From contig NYTD01000284.1 of NCBI GenBank assembly GCA_002683315.1, forward strand, positions 1 through 46,581: a DNA stretch of 46,581 bases, written 5' to 3'. Positions 9,648-30,966 of this stretch are shown here, piece after piece. The notes below the pieces were generated by a model. The model was not told the origin of the DNA and searched no databases. It worked only from the letters and a program-made list of their open reading frames with translations. This DNA comes from Deltaproteobacteria bacterium. GTDB lineage: Bacteria > Myxococcota_A > UBA796. Each line of letters begins with the position of its first letter. Position 1 is the stretch's first letter. The position numbers and the translations under genes are program-made.

Positions 9648-10412
9648 TCAAATCCCGTAGAAACTTGCAGCCATCATACTGATCAACAATGACCACCCAT
9701 CCATCAATACGAAAAGCAAAATTTTGAGTGGAAGAGATAATACAACAGGAGGAAGTACCATCATACCCATACCCAGTAAAATATTGGCCACAACAACATC
9801 AATCACCAAGAAAGGTAAATAAATCTTAACACCAATAATAAACGCCGTCTTTAACTCAGATAAAATAAAAGCACTAACTACAGAAGCATGACCTATTTCT
9901 GAGATAGTCTCTGGAGGAGGACCTTCTTGTAAACTAAGAATTAATTTTAGATCTTCTTGACGCGTATTCGATATCATAAAATCGCGCATCGGCGCCATAA
10001 ATGCTTCCAATGCTGGAAGTACTTCCATATCACCATTCAGAAAAGGCGTAATTGCTGTATCATATACTTCATTAAGTGTAGGCTGCATGAGCATCATGGA
10101 CAAAAATAATGATAAACCAACCAACACTTGATTGGGAGGAGATTGCTGAAGCCCGACAGCTTGACGCAACATCGACAAGACAATAATAAATCTCGTAAAT
10201 GGTGTCATACCCAAAACCAATGCGGGCAAAAATGATAGCGCTGTAAGAATAACCAAAATGCGAACAGTAGAAGAAATAGGAACATCTCGCAATTCTTCAG
10301 CCATTTGAACGGCAACATCTCCCGCATCTTGCGCCAATACAGGAAGAGACCAAAACAGTCCCATCAACATAAACACAGTAAACGGTAGAATTCTACTTAC
10401 GTAATACTTCAT
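9648..10412 (-). CDS. fliP: Flagellar export apparatus protein FliP
   Basis: 254 aa, cleavable signal peptide (..SLPVLAQDAG), FliP-like conserved stretches (LTALSFLPALVLGMTPFTRFIIVLSMLRQAVG; FIIGVKIYLPFLVIDVVVANILLGMGMMVLPP). Confidence 0.95.
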   Translation of the reverse strand: MKYYVSRILPFTVFMLMGLFWSLPVLAQDAGDVAVQMAEELRDVPISSTVRILVILTALSFLPALVLGMTPFTRFIIVLSMLRQAVGLQQSPPNQVLVGLSLFLSMMLMQPTLNEVYDTAITPFLNGDMEVLPALEAFMAPMRDFMISNTRQEDLKLILSLQEGPPPETISEIGHASVVSAFILSELKTAFIIGVKIYLPFLVIDVVVANILLGMGMMVLPPVVLSLPLKILLFVLMDGWSLLISMMAASFYGI

Positions 10413-11139
10413 GAAATCCTTCCGCCCAACGATCTCGCTTTTCTAAAGAATCCTTACGATCATCTGATGTTTTCGTTTTGGTTTCACGCATACGTAAAAT
10501 TTGCTCAACCAAAGCTTCTTTTTCCTCTTCTTCTTCAGAATCCTCCATCACCGGAGTTACTGTACCTTTTATCTCTTTTGGCAAAACCTCTTCGAACTTA
10601 GAAACTTGATTTTGACGAACTTGTGGATTACCAAGTTCTGGAAAAGGTAAAGGTGCACTCAAATCTGCAAGAAATTGTGGAGATCCTTTACTATGCATTC
10701 CGAGTAGAAAAACACGAGGATTGTCTTCTGCATCTTTTACTTCAACGACAGTTATCGAACCTTCATGACCAAAAAATGATCGAGAATGAACTTTGATACT
10801 ACCGATAGTCTTTTTCTGTTTACCGATAAACAAACGTAACGCCCCCAATAAGAGCGCTGCGAAAAGGACCCCCCACCACCAAGGGGCACTGAGTTCTGGA
10901 AAAGCTTGTGGACGTATTTTTTGCAGTTCTGGTTTGGCGTGCTCTTCTATCTGAGCCTCAAGTCCTGCCGGCAAATCAACAGATGGTTGTGGAGCCTTTG
11001 TTTGTAAAGGAAGAGAGATGTCCTCTTCTTTATCTTCATTGCCTTCATCACGATCCAACAAATAATGGATCACTTTTTGATCTGCAATGGGTACCTCTGC
11101 AGGTTCTTCAGCCCACAATAGTCCCACAAAAAAGATCAT
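10393..11139 (-). CDS. fliO: FliO-like protein, about twice the usual length, with acidic extensions
   Basis: Occupies the fliO/fliZ slot between fliN and fliP (ATGA overlap with fliN, 20-nt overlap with fliP). Single central TM (WWWGVLFAALLLGALRLFIG), followed by a FliO-like beta segment (ITVVEVKDAEDNPRVFLLGMHSKGSPQFL). Confidence 0.55.
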   Translation of the reverse strand: MIFFVGLLWAEEPAEVPIADQKVIHYLLDRDEGNEDKEEDISLPLQTKAPQPSVDLPAGLEAQIEEHAKPELQKIRPQAFPELSAPWWWGVLFAALLLGALRLFIGKQKKTIGSIKVHSRSFFGHEGSITVVEVKDAEDNPRVFLLGMHSKGSPQFLADLSAPLPFPELGNPQVRQNQVSKFEEVLPKEIKGTVTPVMEDSEEEEEKEALVEQILRMRETKTKTSDDRKDSLEKRDRWAEGFHEVLRK

Positions 11140-12371: not shown

Positions 12372-12881
12372 TTACTGTACATCAAATTTGGTAAAGTACA
12401 ATGCATTGATCACAAAGTTTGACTCTTTGGTTTTATACTTTTTGTTTATATTGCCTAAGATAACTTCCAAAACATCTTCTTTCTTACTTCGCCCTTCAAG
12501 ATCACCTTTTTCGTAACTGGACATATGCATAATTAACTCATGTTGAATCTTTGGAAGACTTCGTATAAGGGCATCTTTGGATTTTTTCTCTTTTGGGATC
12601 TCAGCAACAAGACGAAAGACGAGTTTCGATCCACCGTCCAAAGTTACACTATCATCAAAAATCTGCTCTATCTCCACCTGAGGAGCTTTGGGGTTATCCA
12701 TAGCTTCTGACTTTTCTGCTGTTTCTACTGTGTCTGTAGAAGATGGTTGTGCCGACGAATCAAAGACACCCATAGCAAATAAGACACCTCCTCCCAATAG
12801 AAGAGTCACTAAGGCAGTTCCAATAATAATAAGTATTACGTTTGGTCCCTTTTCTTCTGTCTCATCTTTTTCATCGGCCAT
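12372..12881 (-). CDS. fliL: Flagellar basal-body-associated protein FliL
   Basis: Single N-terminal TM (VILIIIGTALVTLLLGGGVLFAMG), periplasmic FliL-like C-domain, position after motB. ATG 12881 is preferred because GGAGG lies 6 nt upstream; track start 12905 lacks an SD. Confidence 0.8.
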   Translation of the reverse strand: MADEKDETEEKGPNVILIIIGTALVTLLLGGGVLFAMGVFDSSAQPSSTDTVETAEKSEAMDNPKAPQVEIEQIFDDSVTLDGGSKLVFRLVAEIPKEKKSKDALIRSLPKIQHELIMHMSSYEKGDLEGRSKKEDVLEVILGNINKKYKTKESNFVINALYFTKFDVQ

Positions 12882-13647
12882 ATTTGCCTCCAGAATTCTC
12901 TTCAAGTTTTTTTATTGCGTTCATTGCATCAATACTCTCACCACGTATAACAATTTCTACGCGTCGATTCAACTCATTTGCGCCTGAAGATACAGATGCT
13001 GGTGTAAACTCCCCCATCGCTCTCGCTGTGACTCTATCTCCTTGTATAAATTGCTCTCCTTCATTCTCAAGATCTCGATAACTTCGAAGCTTATTGACTA
13101 CAGCAACTGCTCTATCTCCACTTATTTCCCAATTTTTTTCTTCGTCTGTTCCATCTGAATCGGCATGACCCTCAACAACAATATTTACATTACGCCCTCT
13201 GAGCTCCGTGGCTATCTCACGTAGAATATCAAAGTACGCAGGATCTATTTTCGCCGAACCTGGAGCAAACATACCATTTTGACCAAAAATCAACCGGATT
13301 TCGGTTTTCTTATTGGTCATTTTTATCATATGCTTTGCATTTTGTGCTGCAATGACATCTCGCAGCTGGGCGATCAAAGAATGGGAAGATTCTTTCGAAG
13401 CCTCTTTAAAATCACTATTTTTAGATGACTTTGCGTGAACATGTTCTGTACGATGCTGTCCACCAGAACTAAAGGCTGCTTGCATAGAATTTAATGCGGC
13501 ATCAACTTTCCCTGGATCAAGAAAGTTTGCCATGGATAATTCCATAACAAAGAAACAAAGGAGAAGAGTTACCATATCTGAGTAGGTGACCATCCATAAT
13601 GGTGCACCTTCTTCACACTCTTCACACTTGCAATCCCCTTCAGCCAT
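12871..13647 (-). CDS. motB: Flagellar stator protein MotB
   Basis: WMVTYSDMVTLLLCFFV plug/TM region with the conserved Asp; C-terminal OmpA-like domain (VEGHADSDG..NWEISGDRA..NRRVEIVI). TAATG overlap with motA. Confidence 0.93.
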   Translation of the reverse strand: MAEGDCKCEECEEGAPLWMVTYSDMVTLLLCFFVMELSMANFLDPGKVDAALNSMQAAFSSGGQHRTEHVHAKSSKNSDFKEASKESSHSLIAQLRDVIAAQNAKHMIKMTNKKTEIRLIFGQNGMFAPGSAKIDPAYFDILREIATELRGRNVNIVVEGHADSDGTDEEKNWEISGDRAVAVVNKLRSYRDLENEGEQFIQGDRVTARAMGEFTPASVSSGANELNRRVEIVIRGESIDAMNAIKKLEENSGGKYGR

Positions 13648-14426
13648 TATCCACCCTCTTTGTTGACACGAGCAGTTGGTGCAAGACGCGCATTAAGCTT
13701 ATTCATAATAATTTGAACACTATCACGTGCCAGAATAGAGAGAATCCCTCTCGCTATAAGTTGCTTCTCTGCGACTTCTTCTTTGCTTCTGGATTCAAGC
13801 TTTTTAGCCATAGGAATCGCATAACAGTTTGCAATCATCGAACCATATAGCGTAGTGATAAGGGCAATTGACATAGAAGGACCAATGGCTGTTGGGTCAC
13901 TCATATCTTTGAGCATCTTTACCAAACCAATCAATGTTCCAATCATACCAAACGCTGGAGCCAACATTCCCAATGTATGATACATGTCTGCTCCCTCTTT
14001 ATGACGCTCTTCTACCTTGTCGATCTCCGTCATCAATACTTCTTCAATCATTTTAGGGTCTCGACCGTCTAAAACGTTTTGCAAACCATTACGAAAAAAA
14101 GGATCTTCCAGATTGGGAATAAAATCTTCTAATGATAGCGTTCCTTGTCTTCGAGCTCGACGCGCCATATCTTGCAATAACTCCATCAAACGTTGAGGAT
14201 CTCTTTTGGTGTATGTCATTGCGTTACGGGTAACAGCAACAAAGTTTTTCATCTGATCCACAGGAAAACACACCACCATAGCAGTAATTGTACCACCAAG
14301 TACAATCCCCAAAGATGGTATGTCGATGAATGAGTTAATGTCTGAGACACTATTACTCATAATCGACATACAAATGGCCGCAAAACATAAAATAAGACCA
14401 AGTATCGTTCCTAGATCCATGAACAC
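13647..14426 (-). CDS. motA: Flagellar stator protein MotA
   Basis: 259 aa, MotA/TolQ/ExbB channel signature (APAFGMIGTLIGLV; ALITTLYGSMIANCYAIPMA). Confidence 0.93.
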   Translation of the reverse strand: MFMDLGTILGLILCFAAICMSIMSNSVSDINSFIDIPSLGIVLGGTITAMVVCFPVDQMKNFVAVTRNAMTYTKRDPQRLMELLQDMARRARRQGTLSLEDFIPNLEDPFFRNGLQNVLDGRDPKMIEEVLMTEIDKVEERHKEGADMYHTLGMLAPAFGMIGTLIGLVKMLKDMSDPTAIGPSMSIALITTLYGSMIANCYAIPMAKKLESRSKEEVAEKQLIARGILSILARDSVQIIMNKLNARLAPTARVNKEGG

Positions 14427-16563: not shown

Positions 16564-18027
16564 CTAAACGCGCTTATCTACTATGTAATCAGAATTTATC
16601 GTTTCAACATCTTCTGTTTCAATGTCGTCAAATCCAATATCATCCATACCACCAAAACCAGTATGATCTTCTTCTTCGTCTTGACTACGCAGCTCATATG
16701 AACCAAGTTGTAAGCCTAGATCTTGCAATGATTCTTGAACATCTTGTCCAAGATAATGTAAATCACTCATCGCCTCTGATGGAACAACTGCTCGAACATG
16801 CACCATAGCTTCTTTTTGAGCAATCTCAAGTTGAATGATACCCGCAGGATCCTTCACCTGAATCTCTAACTTTTGCAGAATCTTTGTATGAAATTCTGGC
16901 TCAAAATCTTCTGCTAACTCTTTTGCTTCTTTTAAAAGTTTTGCAAAACTCTGCTCTAGTTTTCGCTTTGGCATTTTCAATTCTTCTTTTGTAGAATTTT
17001 TTTCCAATAAAGAACTAGCTTGCGTTCCTTCTGAACGCATTACACCAGAGACAGATCTCGTTGATTTTTCTGTTCCTAAAACACCACCAGATTGGACCCC
17101 AGAAGGATTCAGAGGTTCTTTTTGGATTTGCATCTCTTCTGGAATATGAAGAGACTCATCTTGTCCTTTTGAAAACTTCGGGGTCACTATTTCTTTTTCT
17201 ACATATCGAACAAAGCGAACTTTTGGATCTTCCTCTATTTCTACTTCCTTCGATAAAGAGGTATCTGTAGCAAAGACTTCCAACTGACGTGGGGCCTGCT
17301 TCGAATCTTCTAGATTCTTCGAAAAGTCTTGAGAAGGAGTTTTTCGCTTTACATTTTTTACAGTAGGCACAAAATTCGGAAGCGCTGGAATAGCTTCTGC
17401 TGCCTGCACTGGAACCTGCTCAGGATTTGACTTGACTATGCCTTCATTCAAAGGAGAGACCACAACTTTTGGCAAAATTTGCGTTATAACTTCAGGTACA
17501 TCTTCTATGAATGGTACTTCTATCTTAATCGGCATCTCTGCTTTGGGCACTGGAGTATATTGAGGCAAAGGCTGTGACTCTTCAATATCTGCAACAGGAA
17601 CTTGTGTCTCTTGTGGAACCAACACTGCAGAAGTAATCTGGTCTTCTACCGAGATTGATGCAAGAGTTGGAACTGGAGTACTCAAGACGTTTGTTGGAAC
17701 CAGAGCAGGAGCGATCAAAGCTTCCACATCTTCACTCTCTTCAAGAATCACTGCATGGTTCTCTATTGGCTCTTCAGCCCCCTTTACGATATCTTGCGAA
17801 ACATCTTCTTCCAACGTTTTCTGAACTTGTATTGGATTCTCTGAAGGTTGAATCACTTCTTCTTGAAATGGAACAACAAAAGCATCGTTGTCTGTTTGAT
17901 TCATCGCTTCATTTTGTGTTAGAACATCCATCATAGACGCAAATCCTCCATTTTGGATCGATGTGCGCTGAGATTTTTGATCCATCCCTTGCTGAGGGAT
18001 TGGATATGAATATGTATCGATAGACAT
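16564..18027 (-). CDS. fliK: Hook-length control protein FliK-like
   Basis: 487 aa. P/E/V/Q-rich low-complexity body and a C-terminal Flg_hook-like segment (LEIQVKDPAGIIQLEIAQKEAMVHVRAVVPSEAM..LQDLGLQLGSYELRS); position upstream of flgD. Confidence 0.72.
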   Translation of the reverse strand: MSIDTYSYPIPQQGMDQKSQRTSIQNGGFASMMDVLTQNEAMNQTDNDAFVVPFQEEVIQPSENPIQVQKTLEEDVSQDIVKGAEEPIENHAVILEESEDVEALIAPALVPTNVLSTPVPTLASISVEDQITSAVLVPQETQVPVADIEESQPLPQYTPVPKAEMPIKIEVPFIEDVPEVITQILPKVVVSPLNEGIVKSNPEQVPVQAAEAIPALPNFVPTVKNVKRKTPSQDFSKNLEDSKQAPRQLEVFATDTSLSKEVEIEEDPKVRFVRYVEKEIVTPKFSKGQDESLHIPEEMQIQKEPLNPSGVQSGGVLGTEKSTRSVSGVMRSEGTQASSLLEKNSTKEELKMPKRKLEQSFAKLLKEAKELAEDFEPEFHTKILQKLEIQVKDPAGIIQLEIAQKEAMVHVRAVVPSEAMSDLHYLGQDVQESLQDLGLQLGSYELRSQDEEEDHTGFGGMDDIGFDDIETEDVETINSDYIVDKRV

Positions 18028-18032
18028 ATGCT

Positions 18033-18605
18033 TTACTTTTCCTTGGTAGGTTCTTCACCCTTTTTGATCGGATGCTGCGCAAGTCTCTCGGTCAGATAAG
18101 CAGCCTTATCAGCATTCATTGCCGCAAGAATCTTTCCCGACTTCGCTGCACTCATCTCCTCAAGAACAAGTACAGAAACATCGTCATCTGTTTTTTCAAG
18201 GATCGCTGCAGCCTGTTTAGCACGAACCTTTTCAAAACGAGCAACAATCGCTTTGACTTTTTCTTTCTTTTTCCCATCCATCTCTTTCATTTTTTCATCA
18301 AGTTCATCACGTATCTCTCTGAGGTCGTCGATCTGATCCTGAAGATTTTTTTTCGCTTCACGGATATTTTTTTCTTTGTTGAGTATATCCTTTTCTCTTC
18401 GAATAAGAGCTTGTTGTCGGGCACTAAGTAGTGAAGAGGTGGACTCCAAACAGTCTGCGAATTCCTTCTCTTCTTTTTCTTCTTTGTTCTCGGTATTGGT
18501 TGTTTGTGCCACCGCTTGTGCCAAAACAGCAAAGAGAACTCCGACGAAAAACATCCCCGCAAACTTTGCATATGTCCACAGTTGAACTCTTCGTTCTATA
18601 TTCAT
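18033..18605 (-). CDS. FlbB/YlxF-like flagellar protein (N-terminal TM, coiled coil, MgtE_N-like C-domain)
   Basis: TM FAGMFFVGVLFAVLAQAVA, K/E-rich coiled coil, then AAAILEKTDDDVSVLVLEEMSAAKSGKILAAMNADKAAYLTERL, which resembles the MgtE intracellular N domain. Sits between fliJ and fliK, as ylxF (Bacillus) and flbB (Borrelia) do. ATG 18605 is preferred: ATGA overlap with the fliJ stop and GAAGAGG upstream. Confidence 0.6.
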   Translation of the reverse strand: MNIERRVQLWTYAKFAGMFFVGVLFAVLAQAVAQTTNTENKEEKEEKEFADCLESTSSLLSARQQALIRREKDILNKEKNIREAKKNLQDQIDDLREIRDELDEKMKEMDGKKKEKVKAIVARFEKVRAKQAAAILEKTDDDVSVLVLEEMSAAKSGKILAAMNADKAAYLTERLAQHPIKKGEEPTKEK

Positions 18606-19018
18606 CTGCCTCTTCCCCATCGCATGATCGCTACTTCATCATTGATACGATCTACTTGCTTTTTATAACTCTTTTTCTCTTTTTCTTCCAGTGTTTCAAT
18701 TACTCTTGACATTACTTTGCTTTCTATTTGAGCCTCAATCATTTCCTTTCTACGTTCTTCTGCTACAGTAGACGCCTCTTGAAGTTCTTGTTCTGTCTTC
18801 TGTATATCGATATGCCTTTGCATATTCAGGTAATCTTGCAAGACTCGCATCCCCATACTTTCAACTTGAACCTGACGTTCTTCTTCTAGTCTACGATGCT
18901 TTTCTCGTACTTGCGTCTCTTTCTCTCTTCTGGTTTGCTCGGCTTGTGCATATTGAAGAGCCTTTTCTCTCTTCTCTTGATCTCTTAACTTTTGCAATGT
19001 TGTATAGACTGTTCTCAT
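18602..19018 (-). CDS. fliJ: Flagellar export chaperone/stalk protein FliJ
   Basis: 138-aa all-coiled-coil R/E/K/Q-rich protein directly after fliI in transcription order; GAGG upstream of the ATG. Confidence 0.65.
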   Translation of the reverse strand: MRTVYTTLQKLRDQEKREKALQYAQAEQTRREKETQVREKHRRLEEERQVQVESMGMRVLQDYLNMQRHIDIQKTEQELQEASTVAEERRKEMIEAQIESKVMSRVIETLEEKEKKSYKKQVDRINDEVAIMRWGRGR

Positions 19019-19142: not shown

Positions 19143-20477
19143 CTACACTCGCGTACGTACTTTTTTCTGTTTGGCTGTGATTCCTTCATATAGCAGTTGC
19201 ATCAATTTTTTCATCTCTTCAAACGACGTCTTATCCTCACGGTCCTGCTGTAAAAAAGCATCGATCTGAGGTTTAAACTGTATGCTTAAATCCACAAGAG
19301 CATCACTTCCCTTCTTATATGCCCCCAAACGAATCAATTCTTCATTCTCTTGATACACTGCGAGGATCTTTCGCATCTCTTGTGCCCATGATAGCTGCTC
19401 TCTACTCGCTGTTTCAGACATGGTTCGTGATAAACTTTCCAAAACATCAATCGGAGGATAGTGCCCATAGCTGACAAGGCGTCGAGACAAAACAATATGA
19501 CCATCCACGATACTTCGAACAGTGTCTCCAATCGGATCGTTAATATCATCCCCTTCTATCAAAACTGTACTTACAGATGTAATACTTCCACCATTCTCAC
19601 CCATTCCACCTCGCTCAAGTAAGCGAGGTAATAGTGTAAAAACAGACGGTGGATACCCTTTACTTGTTGGGGGCTCCCCTGCAGCCAGTCCAAGTTGTCT
19701 TTGCGCCATCGCCAAACGAGTTAAGGAATCTGTCATCATGAGAACGCGCTTTCCTTGATCTCGAAAATATTCAGCAATGGATGTAGCGGCTTGTACTCCC
19801 TTGATCTGCAGTGCTGGACTCACATCAGATGTAGATACAACGACAACAGATTTCGATAGTCCCTCAGCAAGATCCCGCTCCATGAATTCACGAACCTCAC
19901 GCCCACGCTCTCCTACCAATGCAATAACGTTTACATCTGCTTTTGCATGACGTGCCAGCATTCCCATTAGAGTACTTTTACCAACTCCAGAACCAGCCAT
20001 AATACTAATACGCTGTCCTTCCCCCAAAGATAAAAGACCATCGATTGCTCGAACACCTGTTGGAAGAGTCGCTTCTATTAGTTGTCTTTGTAAAGGATTG
20101 GGAGCGCTTGCGTACAAAGAACGAACTTCATTACAAATTGGCTGGGGTTTACCATCAAGTGCGCGACCAAGAGGATCTATGGCTCTCCCCAAAAGAGCTT
20201 CACCAACAGGAACATTTATCTGTTGTGATAAATATTCTACAGTATCACCTTTACGTAATACAGGAATTTTATCCAATGGCATTAAAAGAGCAATCTGTTC
20301 TCGGAAACCAATAACCTCACAAATAGAACCATGAATATGTGCAAGAGAACCACATGACACCTTTGGAGAACTCGCTTCTATTAATTCTCCAATCACCTTA
20401 AGGACAACACCACAAACCGTTCTTCCAGAAACCAATCGTGCTTGATGACTCAAAGATTCCAACCCCAGAACACTCAC
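19143..20477 (-). CDS. fliI: Flagellum-specific ATPase FliI
   Basis: Walker A GSGVGKSTL, Walker B VLMMTDSLTR, F1/T3SS ATPase body. GTG 20477 is preferred: AAGGAGA lies 5 nt upstream and GTGA overlaps the fliH stop. The track's TTG 20495 is less likely. Confidence 0.95.
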   Translation of the reverse strand: MSVLGLESLSHQARLVSGRTVCGVVLKVIGELIEASSPKVSCGSLAHIHGSICEVIGFREQIALLMPLDKIPVLRKGDTVEYLSQQINVPVGEALLGRAIDPLGRALDGKPQPICNEVRSLYASAPNPLQRQLIEATLPTGVRAIDGLLSLGEGQRISIMAGSGVGKSTLMGMLARHAKADVNVIALVGERGREVREFMERDLAEGLSKSVVVVSTSDVSPALQIKGVQAATSIAEYFRDQGKRVLMMTDSLTRLAMAQRQLGLAAGEPPTSKGYPPSVFTLLPRLLERGGMGENGGSITSVSTVLIEGDDINDPIGDTVRSIVDGHIVLSRRLVSYGHYPPIDVLESLSRTMSETASREQLSWAQEMRKILAVYQENEELIRLGAYKKGSDALVDLSIQFKPQIDAFLQQDREDKTSFEEMKKLMQLLYEGITAKQKKVRTRV

Positions 20478-21073
20478 TCTTTCTCCTTGACCCAATTTTC
20501 CAGTAATTCAAAGAATGATTGAAAAACAGGATCAAGCTCCGTCTTCCAAAAGACTTGTTCATGTGAAAAACGCACACCAAGTTGAAGATCTTCTTTTGTC
20601 GATATAGTCCATCCTGACCGACCGGAAAGCAACTTTTCCGTTAGTTCTAAGAATTCAGGTGAAACCTCAACATGAATATTTTTTTTGTCACTTAGCTCCA
20701 TGATCGCTTGCGAAATCATATCGTGTACTGCTACCTGATGAAAATTTGGATCTTGAATAAGTTGCTGTAAAAAAGAAGTCCAAATGGAATATATATGCTC
20801 GCGAACTTCACTTTTCCACACCGAAAGTTGATCTTCACAAATCGATACAATCCTTTGAAAATCTTCTCTCTCTTTATCCCAAATTAGTTTTTCTTGCTCG
20901 TGATGTTGTTGTTGTTCGGACAATTGTGCTAATAGACGCTCATTTTCTTGTATTGAGTCCTTGTATAAGGTCTCGTAGTCTACTTCGGGTTCACTTGGAG
21001 GAGGAGCTTCTTTTTTGGATTGAACACTATGTTGTATCATCGAAGAAAAAGATACAAACGTCGATTTTTTCAT
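20474..21073 (-). CDS. fliH: Flagellar export ATPase regulator FliH
   Basis: 199 aa between fliG and fliI, with a central charged helix and a C-terminal FliH-like segment (IHVEVSPEFLELTEKLL..GWTISTKEDLQLGVRFSHEQ..). Confidence 0.7.
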   Translation of the reverse strand: MKKSTFVSFSSMIQHSVQSKKEAPPPSEPEVDYETLYKDSIQENERLLAQLSEQQQHHEQEKLIWDKEREDFQRIVSICEDQLSVWKSEVREHIYSIWTSFLQQLIQDPNFHQVAVHDMISQAIMELSDKKNIHVEVSPEFLELTEKLLSGRSGWTISTKEDLQLGVRFSHEQVFWKTELDPVFQSFFELLENWVKEKE

Positions 21074-24491: not shown

Positions 24492-24899
24492 CTATCCCTT
24501 CCCATTACTTGCTATAAAGCGAATCATTCCCATTCGCTTACTGATTCCTTTTGTCACAGTTCGAAACATCATTGCATTTGACTTTAATCGAACCATCTCT
24601 CTTTCTAATGAAACTGAGTTTCCATCTATTACCCAAGGAGCAGGCTCTTGTTCATAAATTTCAGGCTCTTGAGTTGTACCACTAAGTCCGGAAAAGTGTC
24701 GATGATCTGTTTTTTTCATCGCTTCATCATTGGTACCCACTGCATCTTTCAATAGCTCATCAAAACGTATTGAGCGAGCTTTGAAAAAAGGAGTATCTAC
24801 ATTGGCTATATTACTGGTTGTAAGTGAATGTTGCTTTTGACGTAAGTCCAAAACAGAATTCAAACCAGTATGAAGCCTATCGAATAATAGATCTTTCAT
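24492..24899 (-). CDS. flgB: Flagellar proximal rod protein FlgB
   Basis: 135 aa; LDLRQKQHSLTTSNIANVDTPFFKA rod-family N-terminal motif; AGGGGG SD upstream. Confidence 0.92.
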   Translation of the reverse strand: MKDLLFDRLHTGLNSVLDLRQKQHSLTTSNIANVDTPFFKARSIRFDELLKDAVGTNDEAMKKTDHRHFSGLSGTTQEPEIYEQEPAPWVIDGNSVSLEREMVRLKSNAMMFRTVTKGISKRMGMIRFIASNGKG

Positions 24900-24928
24900 A
24901 CTTTACCCCCTTTTTAAAACTACCACGA

Positions 24929-24957
24929 TATATAGTGAGTTGAATGGAAAAAATCAA
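24929..24957 (-). promoter_or_regulatory. Candidate sigma70-type promoter for the flgB operon (TTGATT-N17-TATATA)
   Basis: Minus strand: -35 TTGATT (24952-24957), 17-nt spacer, -10 TATATA (24929-24934), about 30 nt upstream of the flgB ATG in the 90-nt spacer. In an AT-rich context a chance match is possible. Confidence 0.35.
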
Positions 24958-24989
24958 ACATTTTCACATCTCTGCCATCAAGAGTATCC

Positions 24990-27206
24990 TTACTTACTTT
25001 GTGATTTCCATTTTTCATACTCTGTTGTAAAATCATCATTATCTTTCTTTTCGCGCAATAATTTATTCCATAAGAATTCTTCTTCTTCAGACCCTGGAAG
25101 AATTTCAAAATTACGACCATCATATTTAGACATCAGATAGTTCATTCTCGCTTCCTCTTCGGGTGTGACTCCCTTCTGAATCTTTGCATAGTCTAAATAT
25201 GCTGTTGCATCTGTAACTTTACTGTTTTCTGCCGCACAATGAGCGAAACCGTACATGTGCGCTATAGAAAAGACAGCATCAATTTCGGGCTGAGATAAGA
25301 TTGCGGGGGTCACCTCACGTACAAATTGATCACACTTTTCTTGTTGCGAAAAAACGACCCCCAATAAGTATCGAGCTTGGGTTCGAAACTGACGAGAGGC
25401 TTTCACCTTACGTAATATCTTTTCAGCATCTTCATAACGCTCATCATCTATCAACAGTTCTGCTCGTAAAATTTCTATTTCATTCTTTGTCTTTGCCGAG
25501 AGATTGTCCGTTGATATTAGCGCAAGTGTTGCCAAACCTTCTCTTCGACCATTTCGAGTCTGCTTATATAATTTGGCTGTGGTAATAAAACTTTTTGCTT
25601 CTTCTTCTTCTGTAAAGAAAGGCTGTTGTTGTGGTCGAAGTTTACGCGTTAAGAAAATGGCTTCTTCCTCAAAGCCAAAATTCATATATGCATCAATGAC
25701 ATGCTGAAAGACTTGTGGATCCAAAGCATAATCCAACATATCATCAAACCAAATTTCTTCATGAAGCTCTATAATTCCTCCCCAATCTTCTTTCTCTTGC
25801 AAGTCAATCACTTCTAAGTAGTATAGAGCCCATAAATTTGAGCCAGCATCAGACAAACGCGCCTGCTCAAATTCAAGAATAAACTTTTTCCACGCTTTCA
25901 TTGCATAGGTAGGAGCACTCAACATTGTATGAATTTGCGCGATCAAATACATTGCTTCGGCTCTGGCCTCTTCTTCTGATGCCAGATTATTGGCTACTCG
26001 ATACAGAAATGGAATGGTATGAGGCCACTTTGCATGAACATTAACTTCTTCGTTTAGAATAGCCAAAATATGACGCATCATCGATAATTCTTGTGGAACA
26101 CTTCTCCAAACTTTTTTGGCTTCATCCATACGATCATCAACATAAAGAGCATCACCATAACGGAGAGCTACACGCGTATCTTTTTCTGGCTCGTCTAAAA
26201 ATACACCTCTATCGTATAAGTCTGAGAGCAACTCCAAACTTTCACGATAATAGCCACTCATTTGAAAAAGTTCTGCTGCCAATAAAAGATGGTTCGGCTC
26301 TGCAGTCATAGCTCGTAATGTCTGTGCCAACTTCTTTCTACTCGGATACCCAGTTTCATGACTCAAATATGCGAGAGCCCCTAAGGTTTGTAAATCACTT
26401 CCACCATATGAATATGCACTTTGAACACCTTTTTGATAGGTTCCCCATTCTCTTTTACGTAAAGAGAGGTGTGTGTCTACAATTGCACGACAACGAGGAG
26501 AAGTACTCCCAATTCTATCTTGGTGTTTTTCAAAATAATAATCCGCTTCGAAAAATAATTCTTCCTGATAATACTTCCACCCAAGAGCATACAGAGCATC
26601 TCCCCACTCTGTAAACATCGCTTCTGATTTCATTAGATTATAATAAGCTTTTAATTCAGCTATTGATTTCTCCCTCAGCGAATCTTTGGGTGAACATAAC
26701 GAAAAAAATTGATTGTCGAACTGCAGTGGAAGAGACATCGCTCCTCCATGGAGGAATAAGATCTTCATATCTGGAGGATAGATCTGATCTTGTTCTTCTT
26801 CTGTCGCCGTCAGAAACTCTTCAACACTATATGGAGAATCGTATGAAACATATTCTATTCCTCGATCCTCTAGGACCCAGATATCCATGTATCCATTACT
26901 AATGGTGACATCCAAAGTATAAATATCCAAATAAAAGAAGATTCGTAGAACCCAAGAATCTTCATCCAATCGGACTGGAACCAATCTTTGAATCTTATCT
27001 GTATAGATCGACCTGTATTTTTCTTCGAATTTACACTTGGGGCATTTGTGTATCACAACTTCTGACATTTTTGGTTGAATCTTTTGAAGGACATGTACAT
27101 AAGAACCTTCTTTGACTGGCAATCGCAGTTCAGCCGTCACAGGCTCTTGCGCTTGAACCAGTCCAAACCAAAAAAAAATCGTAATAAGTAAAGTTGACAT
27201 TGTCAC
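24990..27206 (-). CDS. Secreted 738-aa protein: beta-rich N-domain + long TPR-like helical repeat region (flagellar-cluster associated)
   Basis: Signal peptide MTMSTLLITIFFWFGLVQA/QEP; roughly 120-aa beta-like N-domain; the rest is helical with TPR-like periodicity (W/Y/A/L repeats, e.g. GDALYALGWKYYQEELFFEADYYFEKH). The start is 2 nt after the upstream OMP gene's stop. Confidence 0.7.
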   Translation of the reverse strand: MTMSTLLITIFFWFGLVQAQEPVTAELRLPVKEGSYVHVLQKIQPKMSEVVIHKCPKCKFEEKYRSIYTDKIQRLVPVRLDEDSWVLRIFFYLDIYTLDVTISNGYMDIWVLEDRGIEYVSYDSPYSVEEFLTATEEEQDQIYPPDMKILFLHGGAMSLPLQFDNQFFSLCSPKDSLREKSIAELKAYYNLMKSEAMFTEWGDALYALGWKYYQEELFFEADYYFEKHQDRIGSTSPRCRAIVDTHLSLRKREWGTYQKGVQSAYSYGGSDLQTLGALAYLSHETGYPSRKKLAQTLRAMTAEPNHLLLAAELFQMSGYYRESLELLSDLYDRGVFLDEPEKDTRVALRYGDALYVDDRMDEAKKVWRSVPQELSMMRHILAILNEEVNVHAKWPHTIPFLYRVANNLASEEEARAEAMYLIAQIHTMLSAPTYAMKAWKKFILEFEQARLSDAGSNLWALYYLEVIDLQEKEDWGGIIELHEEIWFDDMLDYALDPQVFQHVIDAYMNFGFEEEAIFLTRKLRPQQQPFFTEEEEAKSFITTAKLYKQTRNGRREGLATLALISTDNLSAKTKNEIEILRAELLIDDERYEDAEKILRKVKASRQFRTQARYLLGVVFSQQEKCDQFVREVTPAILSQPEIDAVFSIAHMYGFAHCAAENSKVTDATAYLDYAKIQKGVTPEEEARMNYLMSKYDGRNFEILPGSEEEEFLWNKLLREKKDNDDFTTEYEKWKSQSK

Positions 27207-27208
27207 AC

Positions 27209-27838
27209 CTAAAACCGAGTATTCAAACCCACACCTAATCTCAAGGCGGACAGATTAAATCCTTCACCAGCACCAAAACCAAAGATTTGATGAAACCTTT
27301 GTCCAATGTGAACTTCTACATCCATCTGTTTGGGACCCATTTGAACACTCGGATGCTGTTGCTTTTGAACAAGATTTGTTTTTATACGAAAACCACTACG
27401 AAAATCCATTCCTATTTTGGTTCCTGCAATCGTTGTAGAAGGAGATGTTTCCAAAAAATGCACCATTGATAACCCAATACCAATAAAAGGCTCCACACGT
27501 TCATTTCCAAATAGGACGTTGGCATGTAAGACTGTAGGGATAATCTGTAGGTTTGATTTGTTATTGTTTCCAGATAAATCGATCAGCCCAATCTGAGCTC
27601 CTACAGAAAAATGTTGGTGAAAACGATAACGTAACGAAAGATCAACAAAAACTTCAGATGCCTTGTACACTTCAATAATTGAAGGGTCGGACCAAAATTC
27701 TCCGACTAATCCCACCATTATTCGAGTTTCTTGGGTATCAAACCCAGACATACCCCATTTTGAAGAAACTTCAGGCTCTTGAGAAAAAGCAGTAGAGGCT
27801 GTAAAAATAAGAAAATTAAGCATTTCGATCAAAACCAA
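27209..27838 (-). CDS. Small outer-membrane beta-barrel protein (OmpW/OmpX-size)
   Basis: About 209 aa, hydrophobic signal-like N-terminus (alternative ATG at 27823), alternating beta-strand pattern, C-terminal ..GVGLNTRF with terminal Phe. Confidence 0.6.
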   Translation of the reverse strand: MVLIEMLNFLIFTASTAFSQEPEVSSKWGMSGFDTQETRIMVGLVGEFWSDPSIIEVYKASEVFVDLSLRYRFHQHFSVGAQIGLIDLSGNNNKSNLQIIPTVLHANVLFGNERVEPFIGIGLSMVHFLETSPSTTIAGTKIGMDFRSGFRIKTNLVQKQQHPSVQMGPKQMDVEVHIGQRFHQIFGFGAGEGFNLSALRLGVGLNTRF

Positions 27839-28133
27839 TTATGGGTCGTTTTTTAGAGAAGGAGCTGTATGCTGACTTTGCTTTTTTAAGCTTTGGAAGA
27901 TTCTCTCCTTCTTTTAACAAGTTACGAAGTCTCTTTCGAATCTCTTGCTCAATAAAGTCAACACAAACTTTGGCTCTTTGTGCAATTTCTGGATTTAACC
28001 ACTGTTTTCCATCATATAAATTCTGAATAAGACTATCAAAATATACTGCATCAATATCACCATCTACAATACAAGAATCCTTCATTCGTTCCAAAGATTC
28101 TATGGTTTGCACAAGTTTTTTGTGTGATAACAC
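27816..28133 (-). CDS. Hypothetical small helical protein (possible FliT/chaperone-like, unproven)
   Basis: 105 aa, predicted helical with a basic tail. The start overlaps the fliS stop by 1 nt. It occupies the position that fliT has after fliS in enterobacterial fliDST. Confidence 0.45.
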   Translation of the reverse strand: MLSHKKLVQTIESLERMKDSCIVDGDIDAVYFDSLIQNLYDGKQWLNPEIAQRAKVCVDFIEQEIRKRLRNLLKEGENLPKLKKAKSAYSSFSKKRPIIGFDRNA

Positions 28134-28504
28134 TAGGGCTCCTGAGGAGAGAAAGCCTCTTTGAAGCCATCATATATACTTTGAGCAACTTCTATCGCCT
28201 TTTCAAGACGATCAGCATCCCCTTCAAATCCAGAACGAGAAATTTCTCGAATAATCCATAAATATAGACCATGTAAATTCTCTGTAAGCTCGCCCCCCTC
28301 ATCATGATCGAGGCAGGCTAGTAATTCTGAAAAAATCTTTCTTGATAGCTGCATTGGATGGACCGCAGATCTTTTATCTTCTGCCTGCAAATAGCCATGA
28401 GCTTCCCACAGGCTCACAATCGATTTTTCAAAAAGACGAAGAACAAGTTCTTCATTCGAGGAGACACTTACACTGTGTTCTTTATATGTCTTAATGCCCT
28501 TCAT
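28133..28504 (-). CDS. fliS: Flagellin-specific chaperone FliS
   Basis: 123 aa; FliS-like four-helix pattern (LVLRLFEKSIVSLWEAH.. KIFSELLACLDHDEGGELTENLHGLYLWIIREI). Confidence 0.88.
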   Translation of the reverse strand: MKGIKTYKEHSVSVSSNEELVLRLFEKSIVSLWEAHGYLQAEDKRSAVHPMQLSRKIFSELLACLDHDEGGELTENLHGLYLWIIREISRSGFEGDADRLEKAIEVAQSIYDGFKEAFSPQEP

Positions 28505-28565: not shown

Positions 28566-30038
28566 TCATGATGTTGCCTTTGGAGCAAAATAAGCACCAA
28601 GGAAACTCGAAGCAGTTTGTGCATTTCCTGCTATTTTTTCCATAGCGGTGAATTGATTATACAAACGATTCTCATACGCTGTTATTCTTTTCTCCCATCG
28701 AGTTACTTGCTTTTGTAGAGCTTTTATCTGATTTGTGGTATTCGTTTGAATCGTTGCTATTGTACCTGTACTTGATGTAGTATACGTTGTTACCAGTGCT
28801 TCCATTGCGGATGAAAAGCTTAGGTCACTTGATTGATCAGCAAACATAGCTTCGATGTCAAGCTGCTGACTGAGTAATGCTGTTTTAAAATTCGCTTCTG
28901 TGAAAACAAGCTTTCCTGTGGAAGAGTTAAACGTAACTCCCATCTTGGATAATGCGTTTATCGGTGAAATAATATTTCCGCTACTATCTGTATTATTTCG
29001 TGAAGTTTCGTTCATTGTGGTTCCATTTGCATTTTCGAAACTTGCATCATCATACACCTTGGATACAGCAGAACGAAGCTGATTTACCATATTACGAACA
29101 TTGGAATCACCAAGAAAAATCCCTTTGGCACCCGTTGTTGCATTATACGTATTATTCGCCTTATAAAAGTCGATAATGTTGTTGTATGCGCTGGTAAAAG
29201 TTTGGATCTTCTCTGAAACACTTGAAATATCCAAAGAAACAGCTACATCTTGTGCTGCAACACCTGCATCTTCTTGATCGCCGAGAGCTGTAATTGTTAG
29301 TCCTGAAACCGCATCGGTAAAGACATTTGTCGCAGATTCTACAGCAACGGAATTAATCGTTGCTTCTGCATTTTGTCCTGTCACACGGGTTACTGATGTA
29401 CCTGTTGTGTTTAACGACGTTCCAGATGTACCTGTAGCAGTGTAATTCAATGAAAAAGTAAAATCTTTTCCTGTCTTTTCTGATAATACAACCAACCGGT
29501 ATGGATTGGTTGAAGCACCTGTGTTTAACACATAAGAAGTAATTCCTGATTTCGCATTGAGTGCGGATGCAAGTGTAGATAAATTATTGTTATCTGCACC
29601 GGAACTAATCGTCATGGTAAAATCACTAAATCCTGCACTTGAATTAAAATTAACTTTAAATGTTCCATCCTTGATTGTTGCTACGCTTGAGGAAACAGTA
29701 TTGAGAATGTGCATATCAGACTTTGCCATCTGTGTAATTTGAACAGAGTATGAACCGGCAATCGCACTACCGGTTGTTGAAGCAGAAAAATAACTGGAAG
29801 CAGCACTAGGGATGGCTGTAGAAAAAGAACGAAAGTTGGAAACTTTCTGAATATCAGTAAGCGACGTTTTTACTGAAGTCATTAGAGTATTTAAAGTGCT
29901 ATACGCAGCATTCTTCGTATTAAGCTGAGATATCTTTGTTTCGAGAAGGGTTTTTGGTTGCGCGGCCGCTTTGGATAACTCTTGTATAAGAGCCGTTGTA
30001 GACAAACCTGAAATAACTCCATCTGTTCGAATCGCCAT
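28566..30038 (-). CDS. fliD: Flagellar filament cap protein FliD
   Basis: 490 aa. N-terminal GLSTTALIQELSKAAAQPKTLLETKISQLNTKNAAYSTLNTLM and C-terminal ..RITAYENRLYNQFTAMEKIAG FliD motifs; S/T/N-rich centre. Confidence 0.92.
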   Translation of the reverse strand: MAIRTDGVISGLSTTALIQELSKAAAQPKTLLETKISQLNTKNAAYSTLNTLMTSVKTSLTDIQKVSNFRSFSTAIPSAASSYFSASTTGSAIAGSYSVQITQMAKSDMHILNTVSSSVATIKDGTFKVNFNSSAGFSDFTMTISSGADNNNLSTLASALNAKSGITSYVLNTGASTNPYRLVVLSEKTGKDFTFSLNYTATGTSGTSLNTTGTSVTRVTGQNAEATINSVAVESATNVFTDAVSGLTITALGDQEDAGVAAQDVAVSLDISSVSEKIQTFTSAYNNIIDFYKANNTYNATTGAKGIFLGDSNVRNMVNQLRSAVSKVYDDASFENANGTTMNETSRNNTDSSGNIISPINALSKMGVTFNSSTGKLVFTEANFKTALLSQQLDIEAMFADQSSDLSFSSAMEALVTTYTTSSTGTIATIQTNTTNQIKALQKQVTRWEKRITAYENRLYNQFTAMEKIAGNAQTASSFLGAYFAPKATS

Positions 30039-30126: not shown

Positions 30127-30966
30127 TTAGCTGAGGAGAGAAATGATGGACTGAGGAATTGCTTTCGCTTGTCCAAGAGCCGCAACACCAGCTTGTTGCA
30201 TGATCTGGTAACGAGTCATGTTCGCTGATTCAGTTGCATAGTCAACATCAAGAATCTGTGATGAAGAGTTTGCAAGATTTTGTGAGTAGTTGCTTGCTTC
30301 GTTCAATGTGCTTTCCAAACGATTTTGGAATGCACCAAGAGTAGAACGTGAACTGTTTACTGACTTGAGTGCTGTATCGATAATATTGATCGCTGTTACA
30401 GACTGAGCAAGAGTAGTAATACCATCAGAAGATATGGAGGAAATTCCCAAAGAACCCCAAGTAGCAGCAACAGAAGCAAGATTAAGAAGAATCTTGTTGT
30501 CAGCATTCTTGTGAATACCTACTTGAAGAGCAAAACCTGTTGTGGATGAGTTCAAAACCTTTGTACGGTTGAAGTTCGCAACAGAAGCAATACGCTTGAT
30601 TTCGTTTGCAAGAGTAGTGAATTCTTTTGAGATCTCTGAACGGTCACCAGAGTTATAAGTCTGGTTGGATCCTTGAACAGCAAGTTCACGCATACGAACA
30701 AGAATGTTGTATACTTCGTTCAATCCACCTTCTGCAGTTTGAATGAGAGAGATACCATCGTTTGCATTTCTCATTGCTTGCTTGAGAGATGTGTTGTCAG
30801 ATGTTTGACGAGTTGCAACAGAAAGTCCTGCAGCGTCATCAGAGGCGCTGTTTACACGAAGACCACTAGAGATCTTGGCCAAAGAACCTGTCAATTTGTT
30901 TTGAGTGCGGTTGAGTGTCTTGATAGAGTTCAACGCTGCCATATTATTTCGTACTGTTAATGCCAT
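30127..30966 (-). CDS. fliC: Flagellin (short, D0/D1-only size)
   Basis: 279 aa. N-terminal MALTVRNNMAALNS..SSGLRVNSASDDAAGLSVA and C-terminal ..TRYQIMQQAGVAALGQAKAIPQSIISLL flagellin motifs; GGAGG SD upstream. Confidence 0.96.
   Translation of the reverse strand: MALTVRNNMAALNSIKTLNRTQNKLTGSLAKISSGLRVNSASDDAAGLSVATRQTSDNTSLKQAMRNANDGISLIQTAEGGLNEVYNILVRMRELAVQGSNQTYNSGDRSEISKEFTTLANEIKRIASVANFNRTKVLNSSTTGFALQVGIHKNADNKILLNLASVAATWGSLGISSISSDGITTLAQSVTAINIIDTALKSVNSSRSTLGAFQNRLESTLNEASNYSQNLANSSSQILDVDYATESANMTRYQIMQQAGVAALGQAKAIPQSIISLLS

Follow-up and report, generated by a model that had tools for sequence, protein, structure and literature searches.

A PflA-like TPR protein and a small outer-membrane beta-barrel encoded between fliS and flgB: candidate flagellar motor accessories in the UBA796 lineage

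The window analysed here is a stretch of 46,581 nucleotides (nt) of contig NYTD01000284.1 (GenBank assembly GCA_002683315.1), which comes from a 59%-complete metagenome-assembled genome (MAG) of an uncultured marine bacterium of the UBA796 lineage. Its flagellar gene block contains, between fliS and flgB, a trio of adjacent genes (positions 24990 to 28133) encoding a protein of 105 amino acids (aa), orf105, an outer membrane protein (OMP) of about 209 aa, OMP209, and a secreted tetratricopeptide repeat (TPR) protein of 738 aa. We consider it rather likely that the TPR protein is a periplasmic motor scaffold (spoke) of the PflA class, that the OMP209 barrel is its partner or anchor on the outer-membrane side, and that orf105 is a FliT-like chaperone or regulator. 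The arrangement of the genes, the folds, the structural resemblance to PflA, the strict synteny, the association with flagellated genomes and the matching sequence in RNA libraries are on firm ground; from them we infer a location in the motor, partners and an effect on the stators. The TPR protein is a well-supported addition to a kind of protein already proposed to be homologous to PflA, and the barrel is a new lead.

Organization of the locus

The trio and the flanking flagellar genes are all encoded on the minus strand, in the order flagellin, fliD, fliS, orf105, OMP209, TPR gene, flgB, flgC, fliE, fliF, fliG. The part of the block that surrounds the trio is composed of the following features.

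30127-30966, minus strand: flagellin gene
28566-30038, minus strand: fliD
28133-28504, minus strand: fliS, chaperone for flagellin export, which bounds the trio on its upstream side (Pfam FliS, 5.7e-21; TIGR00208, 5.6e-16)
27816-28133, minus strand: orf105, small putative cytoplasmic protein without signal peptide, in the position of FliT
27209-27838, minus strand: OMP209, predicted secreted 8-stranded outer-membrane beta-barrel (AlphaFold2, Foldseek, signal peptide)
24990-27206, minus strand: TPR gene, 738 aa, predicted to be secreted
24900-24989, minus strand: spacer of 90 nt between the TPR gene and flgB
24492-24899, minus strand: flgB, at the head of the flgB-flgC-fliE-fliF-fliG-fliH-fliI-fliJ block (TIGR01396, 5.6e-24)

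The GTG start of orf105 and the TAG stop of fliS share 1 nt. The TTG start of OMP209 at 27838 gives 209 aa and an overlap of 23 nt with orf105; an alternative ATG at 27823, inside ATGCTTAA, would give 204 aa and an overlap of 8 nt, and is the start chosen by gene callers in close homologues. The GTG start of the TPR gene lies 2 nt past the OMP209 stop, and an ATG two codons further on would give 736 aa (as in P0001). The preliminary description of this DNA, made from the sequence alone, had read the junctions from fliS to flgB in the same way (overlaps of 1 and 23 nt, a gap of 2 nt and a spacer of 90 nt), and all of them were borne out at these coordinates. Because the same order recurs in approximately 45 independent loci, the arrangement is not due to chance. 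A scan found no terminator-like hairpin in the 90-nt spacer, and inspection by eye no convincing sigma-54 box there; the counts from a scan for sigma-70 promoters and terminators were no different from those of shuffled sequence.

The TPR protein and its likeness to PflA

The AlphaFold2 (AF2) model of the TPR protein (m50fec0bb92ae), built from a 20-sequence alignment, has a predicted local distance difference test score (pLDDT) of 87.1 and a predicted template modelling score (pTM) of 0.71. It agrees with the earlier reading of the 738-aa protein as a beta-rich N-domain followed by long TPR-like repeats, and divides it into the following predicted parts.

27147-27206, minus strand: predicted signal peptide, residues 1-20, cleavage after VQA (VQA/QE), from the sequence; pLDDT <50 for residues 1-21
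26868-27128, minus strand: seven-stranded N-terminal beta-sandwich, residues 27-113 (AF2)
26685-26867, minus strand: linker, residues 114-174, without regular secondary structure and with a conserved PP...FL.G.A.S motif (AF2; alignments A1 and A3)
24993-26684, minus strand: TPR-like alpha-superhelix, residues 175-738, with 33 helices in approximately 16 hairpins (AF2, pLDDT mostly 85-96)

The strands of the sandwich span residues 27-30, 36-39, 47-53, 72-79, 85-91, 96-103 and 106-113. The cleavage motif, Ax-A/QE, is conserved in alignment A1 (19 sequences), where G154 of the linker is invariant; in A3 this glycine is conserved in at least 90% of the sequences. In A6, an alignment of 60 diverse TPR homologues, C625 is invariant and C657 at least 90% conserved, which fits an oxidising periplasmic location. 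The putative cleavable signal peptide, the lack of a transmembrane anchor and the folded domains modelled after residue 21 all point to a periplasmic protein. In curated libraries, the TPR matches are weak, sub-threshold and confined to residues 530-670. Within the signal-peptide codons, the coding strand has nine consecutive T (27170-27178; ATT TTT TTT TGG), a tract that could be slippage-prone.

When the model was compared with 350,542 PDB chains by Foldseek, the top match was 9hmf_K (E 1.7e-9, 806 aligned columns). Entry 9hmf is the periplasmic scaffold of the Campylobacter jejuni flagellar motor, and chain K was identified as PflA because its length is 773, PflA is modelled from residue 16 and PflB only over 113-820, and no other scaffold protein is so long. 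The next matches are generic TPR scaffolds (Ctr9, LbcA, IFT-A) with E of 3e-7 or worse, and the other long TPR chain of the entry, 9hmf_L, probably PflB, ranks seventh. In PflA, a beta-sandwich at the N-terminus is followed by an unstructured linker and 16 TPRs; the N-domain and linker bind PflB, and the helical part makes the radial spokes (PMC12222027). Since the AF2 domains agree with this description, the TPR protein has the same domain plan as PflA. PflA is itself not conserved at the sequence level (bioRxiv 10.1101/2025.02.19.638559), and a sequence bridge to it was sought with the single sequence and with profiles of 19 and 60 sequences, the latter drawn from a search of 1.84 billion proteins; only generic or designed TPR proteins were returned. 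The parallel with PflA without visible sequence identity, as first suggested, is thus seen in the domain plan and the top structural match, with no profile match. In terms of the models, the likeness is one of architecture and fold, not of demonstrated common descent.

Compared with PflA of C. jejuni and H. pylori, the TPR protein is likewise a predicted Sec-exported periplasmic protein, in a size range of approximately 740-790 aa, with a beta-sandwich, an unstructured linker and around 16 TPR hairpins; its gene, too, lies among flagellar genes, and the genome also codes for a FlgY-type E-ring protein, MotAB and FliL. It has no detectable sequence similarity to PflA, its gene heads the flgB operon, and it has a dedicated outer-membrane barrel neighbour, none being described for PflA. 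Its host is a Myxococcota-type marine bacterium, whereas the hosts of PflA are Campylobacterota.

OMP209, a small outer-membrane barrel

The AF2 model of OMP209 (17-sequence alignment, pLDDT 85.4) has eight long antiparallel strands. Its best Foldseek matches are the transmembrane domain of OmpA, Ail, NspA, OmpX, the N-domain of OprF and OmpW, with E of 8e-8 to 1e-5 and target-normalised TM-scores (TMt) of 0.6-0.75; for the first four, E ranges from 8e-8 to 2e-6 and TMt from 0.66 to 0.74. These results sustain the earlier reading of a beta-barrel OMP of about 209 aa. Throughout the family (alignment A4) there is a predicted signal peptide ending in AxA/Q(E/D) and a C-terminal F, L or Y, and no lipobox cysteine follows the signal peptide in that alignment. 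The conserved segments include MDVE..GRRQHQAFGxGxGFD, which includes the glycine-rich FGxGxGF, and loops L1 and L4. Pfam OMP_b-brl gives 16.6 bits, under its gathering cut-off of 28.7; some homologues carry a precomputed PF13505 match, and NCBIfam has no match for OMP209.

Like the small barrels OmpA (transmembrane domain), OmpX, Ail, NspA and OmpW, OMP209 has a signal peptide, eight strands in antiparallel order and an aromatic residue at its C-terminus. Unlike OmpA it has no C-terminal peptidoglycan domain and, unlike the known small barrels, its family is exclusive to flagellar operons. The preliminary description had pointed to FlgP and FlgT/MotX/MotY as outer-membrane-associated proteins of outer disks. 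OMP209 is predicted to be an outer-membrane protein and, like FlgP, FlgQ, FlgO and FlgT of the Campylobacter basal disk and the Vibrio H-ring, would be a lineage-specific accessory on the outer-membrane side, encoded with flagellar genes. Those proteins, however, are lipoproteins or soluble SHS2-type folds (PMC12222027; bioRxiv 10.64898/2025.12.02.691832), whereas OMP209 is modelled as an integral 8-stranded barrel with no lipobox and no fold similarity to them, which rules out an analogy with FlgO, FlgP or FlgQ. A lipid A enzyme of the PagL or PagP type was also considered and rejected: these folds are outside the top 50 Foldseek matches, and A4 has no obvious invariant Ser/His pair. In some genera (L038:5246-6001 of UBA796; L037 and L044) the barrel has a periplasmic N-terminal extension with a long lysine-rich insert, KKKSTKSKKAKKAKKVKKAKKPKAKKEKPKK, which is not present in the window copy.

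orf105

In every relative, the 350 nt that separate fliS from the barrel gene contain an orf105-type open reading frame (ORF) of approximately 100 aa; BLAST alone found one of these homologues. Nineteen homologues that span the order (alignment A5) align end to end without large gaps, and hidden Markov model (HMM) matches were obtained in further loci of the order. The family has no signal peptide and ends in a basic tail, (R/K)-A-L-K-G-Y-x-x-L-R-x5-Q-R-L-x-R-R-A. Like FliT, the FliD chaperone that stands last in fliD-fliS-fliT units, orf105 has about 100 aa, is putatively cytoplasmic and is encoded directly after fliS. An assignment to FliT was tried: Pfam FliT is the only recurrent match of the family, and a weak one (two of 19 members, best E 0.033, the window protein unmatched), and the profile gave only noise against PDB. 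The conserved C-terminal Tyr is reminiscent of the Tyr with which FliT and FlgN bind FlhA, a likeness that we offer as a lead only. Because it lacks a signal peptide and occupies the FliT slot, orf105 probably acts in the cytoplasm, as an export chaperone or a regulator, rather than as a periplasmic structural part. The trio had been put forward as one candidate accessory structure; this may hold for the TPR protein and the barrel, both predicted to be exported, and is less likely for orf105.

In family f2 (L022:11051-11593, minus strand; L023:6224-6955, plus strand; L024:5949-6485, plus strand) an extra conserved ORF of around 180 aa, beginning with MxQxxRYFR and ending in an RRERRR-rich stretch, lies between the orf105-like and barrel genes. 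A guess that it belongs to PilZ found no Pfam match at E<=0.1.

Distribution, synteny and co-occurrence

UBA796 is treated as a class of Myxococcota whose MAGs express flagellin in seawater (PMC11937823). The trio was followed in the loci of relatives and in a sample of 401 genomes of the phylum, 60 of them in the order and approximately 340 outside it. In 20 of 20 relatives' loci, from seven families, the order is fliD-fliS-(~100 aa)-OMP-TPR-flgB-flgC-fliE-fliF-fliG (in two f7 loci the barrel gene was found by hand), so that the position of the trio is conserved at 17-30% identity. A further 19 contig loci, several of them cut by contig ends, are compatible with this order as far as each reaches, and it is also found in further members of the order and in four public contigs with independent gene calls. 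In long public contigs the block runs on upstream as flgI-flgJ-x-x-flgK-flgL-flagellin. The TPR family is small and sharply delimited: a word-seeded search gave six clusters, and of 1.84 billion representatives 142 clusters reached E<1e-30, almost all of them 700-760 aa long.

Within the order, a full-length TPR homologue is present in 39 of 40 genomes with fliF and in 0 of 20 without it (Fisher p=5e-15, uncorrected for phylogeny). The OMP209 profile matches 36 of the 401 genomes, every one of them a member of the order, and in each except G177 the barrel gene lies beside the TPR gene; three apparent misses of the barrel proved to be divergent copies. No intact homologue of the TPR protein or the trio was found in a non-flagellated genome or far from flagellar genes, either in the 401 genomes or in approximately 100 protein clusters. 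The association of the trio with flagella, which had been proposed from its position alone and for which co-occurrence across genomes was the suggested check, is therefore upheld both by synteny in around 45 loci and by co-occurrence. Either junction of the block can be broken: G177 keeps the barrel gene with fliD-fliS-orf105, 35 kb from TPR-flgB, and in G290 the TPR, OMP, orf105, fliS and fliD genes are together, apart from flgB.

Beyond the order, a divergent TPR protein of 790-880 aa is encoded directly upstream of flgB (HMM E 1e-9 to 1e-34) in flagellated genomes of the same class and in one genome of another class, and at those loci there is no barrel or orf105-like gene upstream of flgB. 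This suggests that the flgB operon was headed by a PflA-like gene before the order arose. These loci are L049-L055 (genomes G309, G235, G149, G398 and G068); in two loci outside the order, a gene of approximately 460 aa, guessed to encode an NtrC-type response regulator, precedes the TPR gene. In genus g30, with genomes of 9.1-9.4 Mb, G177 has fliF, the TPR protein and the barrel and G205 has none of them, which implies that the entire flagellar system was recently lost or gained within the genus. In the phylum as a whole, fliF was found in 173 of the 401 genomes, far above expectation for a phylum known for gliding motility.

Matches in RNA libraries

Marine metatranscriptome contigs with at least 99% identity cover fliF, flgC-flgB, two parts of the TPR gene, fliS-fliD and flagellin, the last being the deepest, and the depth over the TPR gene is similar to that over flgB-fliF. 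One contig (24907-25322) covers the 3' end of the TPR gene and 83 of the 90 spacer bases. Over the barrel gene, a contig of 95-99% identity comes from another RNA-type library. The presence of such contigs is weak evidence of expression, as DNA carry-over is possible.

Proposed role and alternative explanations

In the proposed mechanism, the Sec system would export the TPR protein to the periplasm, where its superhelix would form radial spokes between an E-ring of the FlgY-type protein encoded at 18033-18620 and the stator ring, by analogy with the work on C. jejuni and H. pylori (PMC12222027; PMC13023049; bioRxiv 10.1101/2025.02.19.638559). The beta-sandwich and the conserved linker may grip a peripheral partner and so hold MotAB stator units in place, as PflA-type scaffolds position the MotAB stator in known systems. 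In one order, the UBA796 lineage, the scaffold gene would have acquired a dedicated neighbour for an integral 8-stranded barrel, which could be a partner of the same accessory structure, or its anchor, on the side of the outer membrane, and orf105 would act in the cytoplasm as a FliT-like chaperone for export or as a regulator, completing a unit of fliD-fliS-fliT type. That the barrel is also a true stoichiometric motor subunit, tied directly or through the PflA-like beta-sandwich and linker to the inner network of E-ring and spokes, is a more specific claim that seems to us doubtful.

A number of observations count against the proposal. The TM-scores between the TPR model and 9hmf_K are low (0.32/0.31, with a root mean square deviation of 36 A), values of about 0.3 being expected for long flexible solenoids, and TPR solenoids match one another promiscuously, so that homology and convergence are not told apart. 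At the sequence level, no PflA chain was found at E<=10 among all PDB sequences by phmmer or by the 19- or 60-sequence profile, and the N-terminal 160-275 residues of nine TPR family members had no Pfam match at E<=5, AMIN included. No PflB-like partner and no gene for PflB, PflC, PflD or the cage was identified here, a PflB-like gene not having been sought systematically. Judging by its model, OMP209 has short loops and little periplasmic mass, and a contact with a spoke close to the inner membrane is hard to see. The TPR and barrel genes are separable, as G177 illustrates, and one flagellated genome, G272, lacks both the TPR protein and the barrel, its flgB having no TPR gene upstream. Finally, the co-occurrence test takes no account of phylogeny, and the metatranscriptome with the other contigs had none over OMP209 or orf105.

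The main competing explanation also makes the TPR protein and the barrel flagellar, as an assembly aid similar to pilotin and secretin or to AlgK and AlgE, perhaps absent from the finished motor, which would help outer-membrane penetration, formation of the L- and P-rings or remodelling of the sheath or outer membrane. Pairs of a TPR protein and an outer-membrane barrel are a common theme in envelope assembly, the best Foldseek matches also include generic TPR scaffolds, LbcA for example, and where the block splits in G177 the barrel gene stays with the late genes fliD-fliS. There is also a precedent in C. jejuni FlgQ, which is needed for disk assembly yet is unseen in the structure (PMC12222027). 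We nevertheless judge an assembly aid unlikely: over its full length, with the beta-sandwich, the TPR protein matches PflA best, and PflA is a scaffold that stays in the motor; a barrel of eight strands lacks an export pore; FlgH and FlgI are present and ordinary in the relatives; and outside the order the TPR gene heads the early flgB operon without any barrel.

The likeness to PflA could instead be convergent, the TPR protein being a lineage-specific periplasmic adaptor with a different role in the motor, for example a tether of the stator or peptidoglycan in the manner of MotX and the T-ring or of the FlcA collar, with the barrel an unrelated passenger of the operon. Such a view would accommodate the missing sequence link, the low TM-scores and the splitting of the block in G177 and G290, but domain order and size match PflA specifically, and the barrel family occurs only in flagellated members of the order, almost always adjacent to the TPR gene. 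MotK, MotC, FlcB and PflA have already been grouped as one structural class (PMC13023049), and convergence, which we regard as improbable, thereby largely merges with the proposal of a PflA-class scaffold. It is highly improbable, in our view, that the three genes are envelope or housekeeping passengers without a flagellar function. In favour of passengers, all the database names are "hypothetical protein" and no curated family gives the trio a flagellar role; against them stand the translationally coupled junctions, the restriction of the TPR protein to genomes with fliF in the order, and a position kept across seven families despite their low identity.

Relation to known accessory proteins

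Single TPR proteins encoded near flagellar genes in approximately 52% of flagellated species have been proposed as PflA homologues that partner an ancient FlgY E-ring; they include CC_2058 of Caulobacter, MotK and MotC of alpha-proteobacteria, and FlcB and FlcA of spirochaetes (bioRxiv 10.1101/2025.02.19.638559; PMC13023049). The protein described here is also a single, putatively periplasmic multi-TPR protein in a flagellar cluster that co-occurs with an MgtE_N (FlgY/FlbB/MotE) protein, and its AF2 model has no transmembrane segment plus beta-pair in mid-protein, the feature that defines PflB for those authors. In contrast to that general proposal, its family is confined to one order, and the barrel and orf105 have no place in the proposal. 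The structure had been called undescribed in the preliminary description, which is fair for the barrel partner and not for the TPR protein, since others had earlier put forward its kind as widespread homologues of PflA.

The known flagellar accessories on the outer-membrane side, FlgP, FlgQ, FlgO and FlgT, do not include an integral 8-stranded barrel dedicated to a flagellar operon. As a stoichiometric subunit, OMP209 would give bacterial flagellar motors their first integral outer-membrane beta-barrel component, and the order would have evolved an envelope-spanning stator cage by a route other than the lipoprotein disks of Campylobacter and Vibrio; a structural barrel would in any case be a new class of flagellar component. 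Motor embellishments account for gain in torque and retention of stators, and their parts lists come so far from a few pathogens. Myxococcota, moreover, are usually thought of as gliding, non-flagellated bacteria. A PflA-like spoke protein in free-living marine bacteria of Myxococcota type would support the recent claim that the module of E-ring and spokes is ancient and widespread. The TPR gene alone outside the order and the TPR gene with a dedicated barrel inside it form a comparative series, which could show a scaffold acquiring an outer-membrane partner.

Other genes of the flagellar block

Further genes of the block, identified with Pfam and NCBIfam, are fliH-like, fliI, fliJ, a gene for an MgtE_N protein, fliK-like, flgD, flgE, motA, motB, fliL, fliM, fliP, fliR and flhB. 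The genes in the positions of FliH (20474-21073), FliK (16564-18027) and FliN/FliO (10393-11139) have no Pfam match at E<=0.001; the flagellar proteins in these positions are strongly diverged in this lineage. FlgH and FlgI, missing only from the 59%-complete MAG of the window itself, were found in 10 of 10 relatives and are ordinary, and the lineage therefore has ordinary L- and P-rings; this rules out the barrel as a substitute for the L-ring. The operon of the TPR gene holds the FlgY-type MgtE_N protein, MotAB and FliL, of which the first two are located as follows.

18033-18620, minus strand: MgtE_N-domain protein between fliJ and fliK (Pfam MgtE_N, 1.2e-5), kept in the relatives' loci
12871-14426, minus strand: motA and motB, stator (Pfam MotA_ExbB, 2.1e-33; MotB_plug, 1.8e-14, and OmpA, 7.5e-14)

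The MgtE_N protein is an E-ring homologue of the FlgY/FlbB/YlxF type, and its position agrees with the synteny of flgY (PMC13023049).

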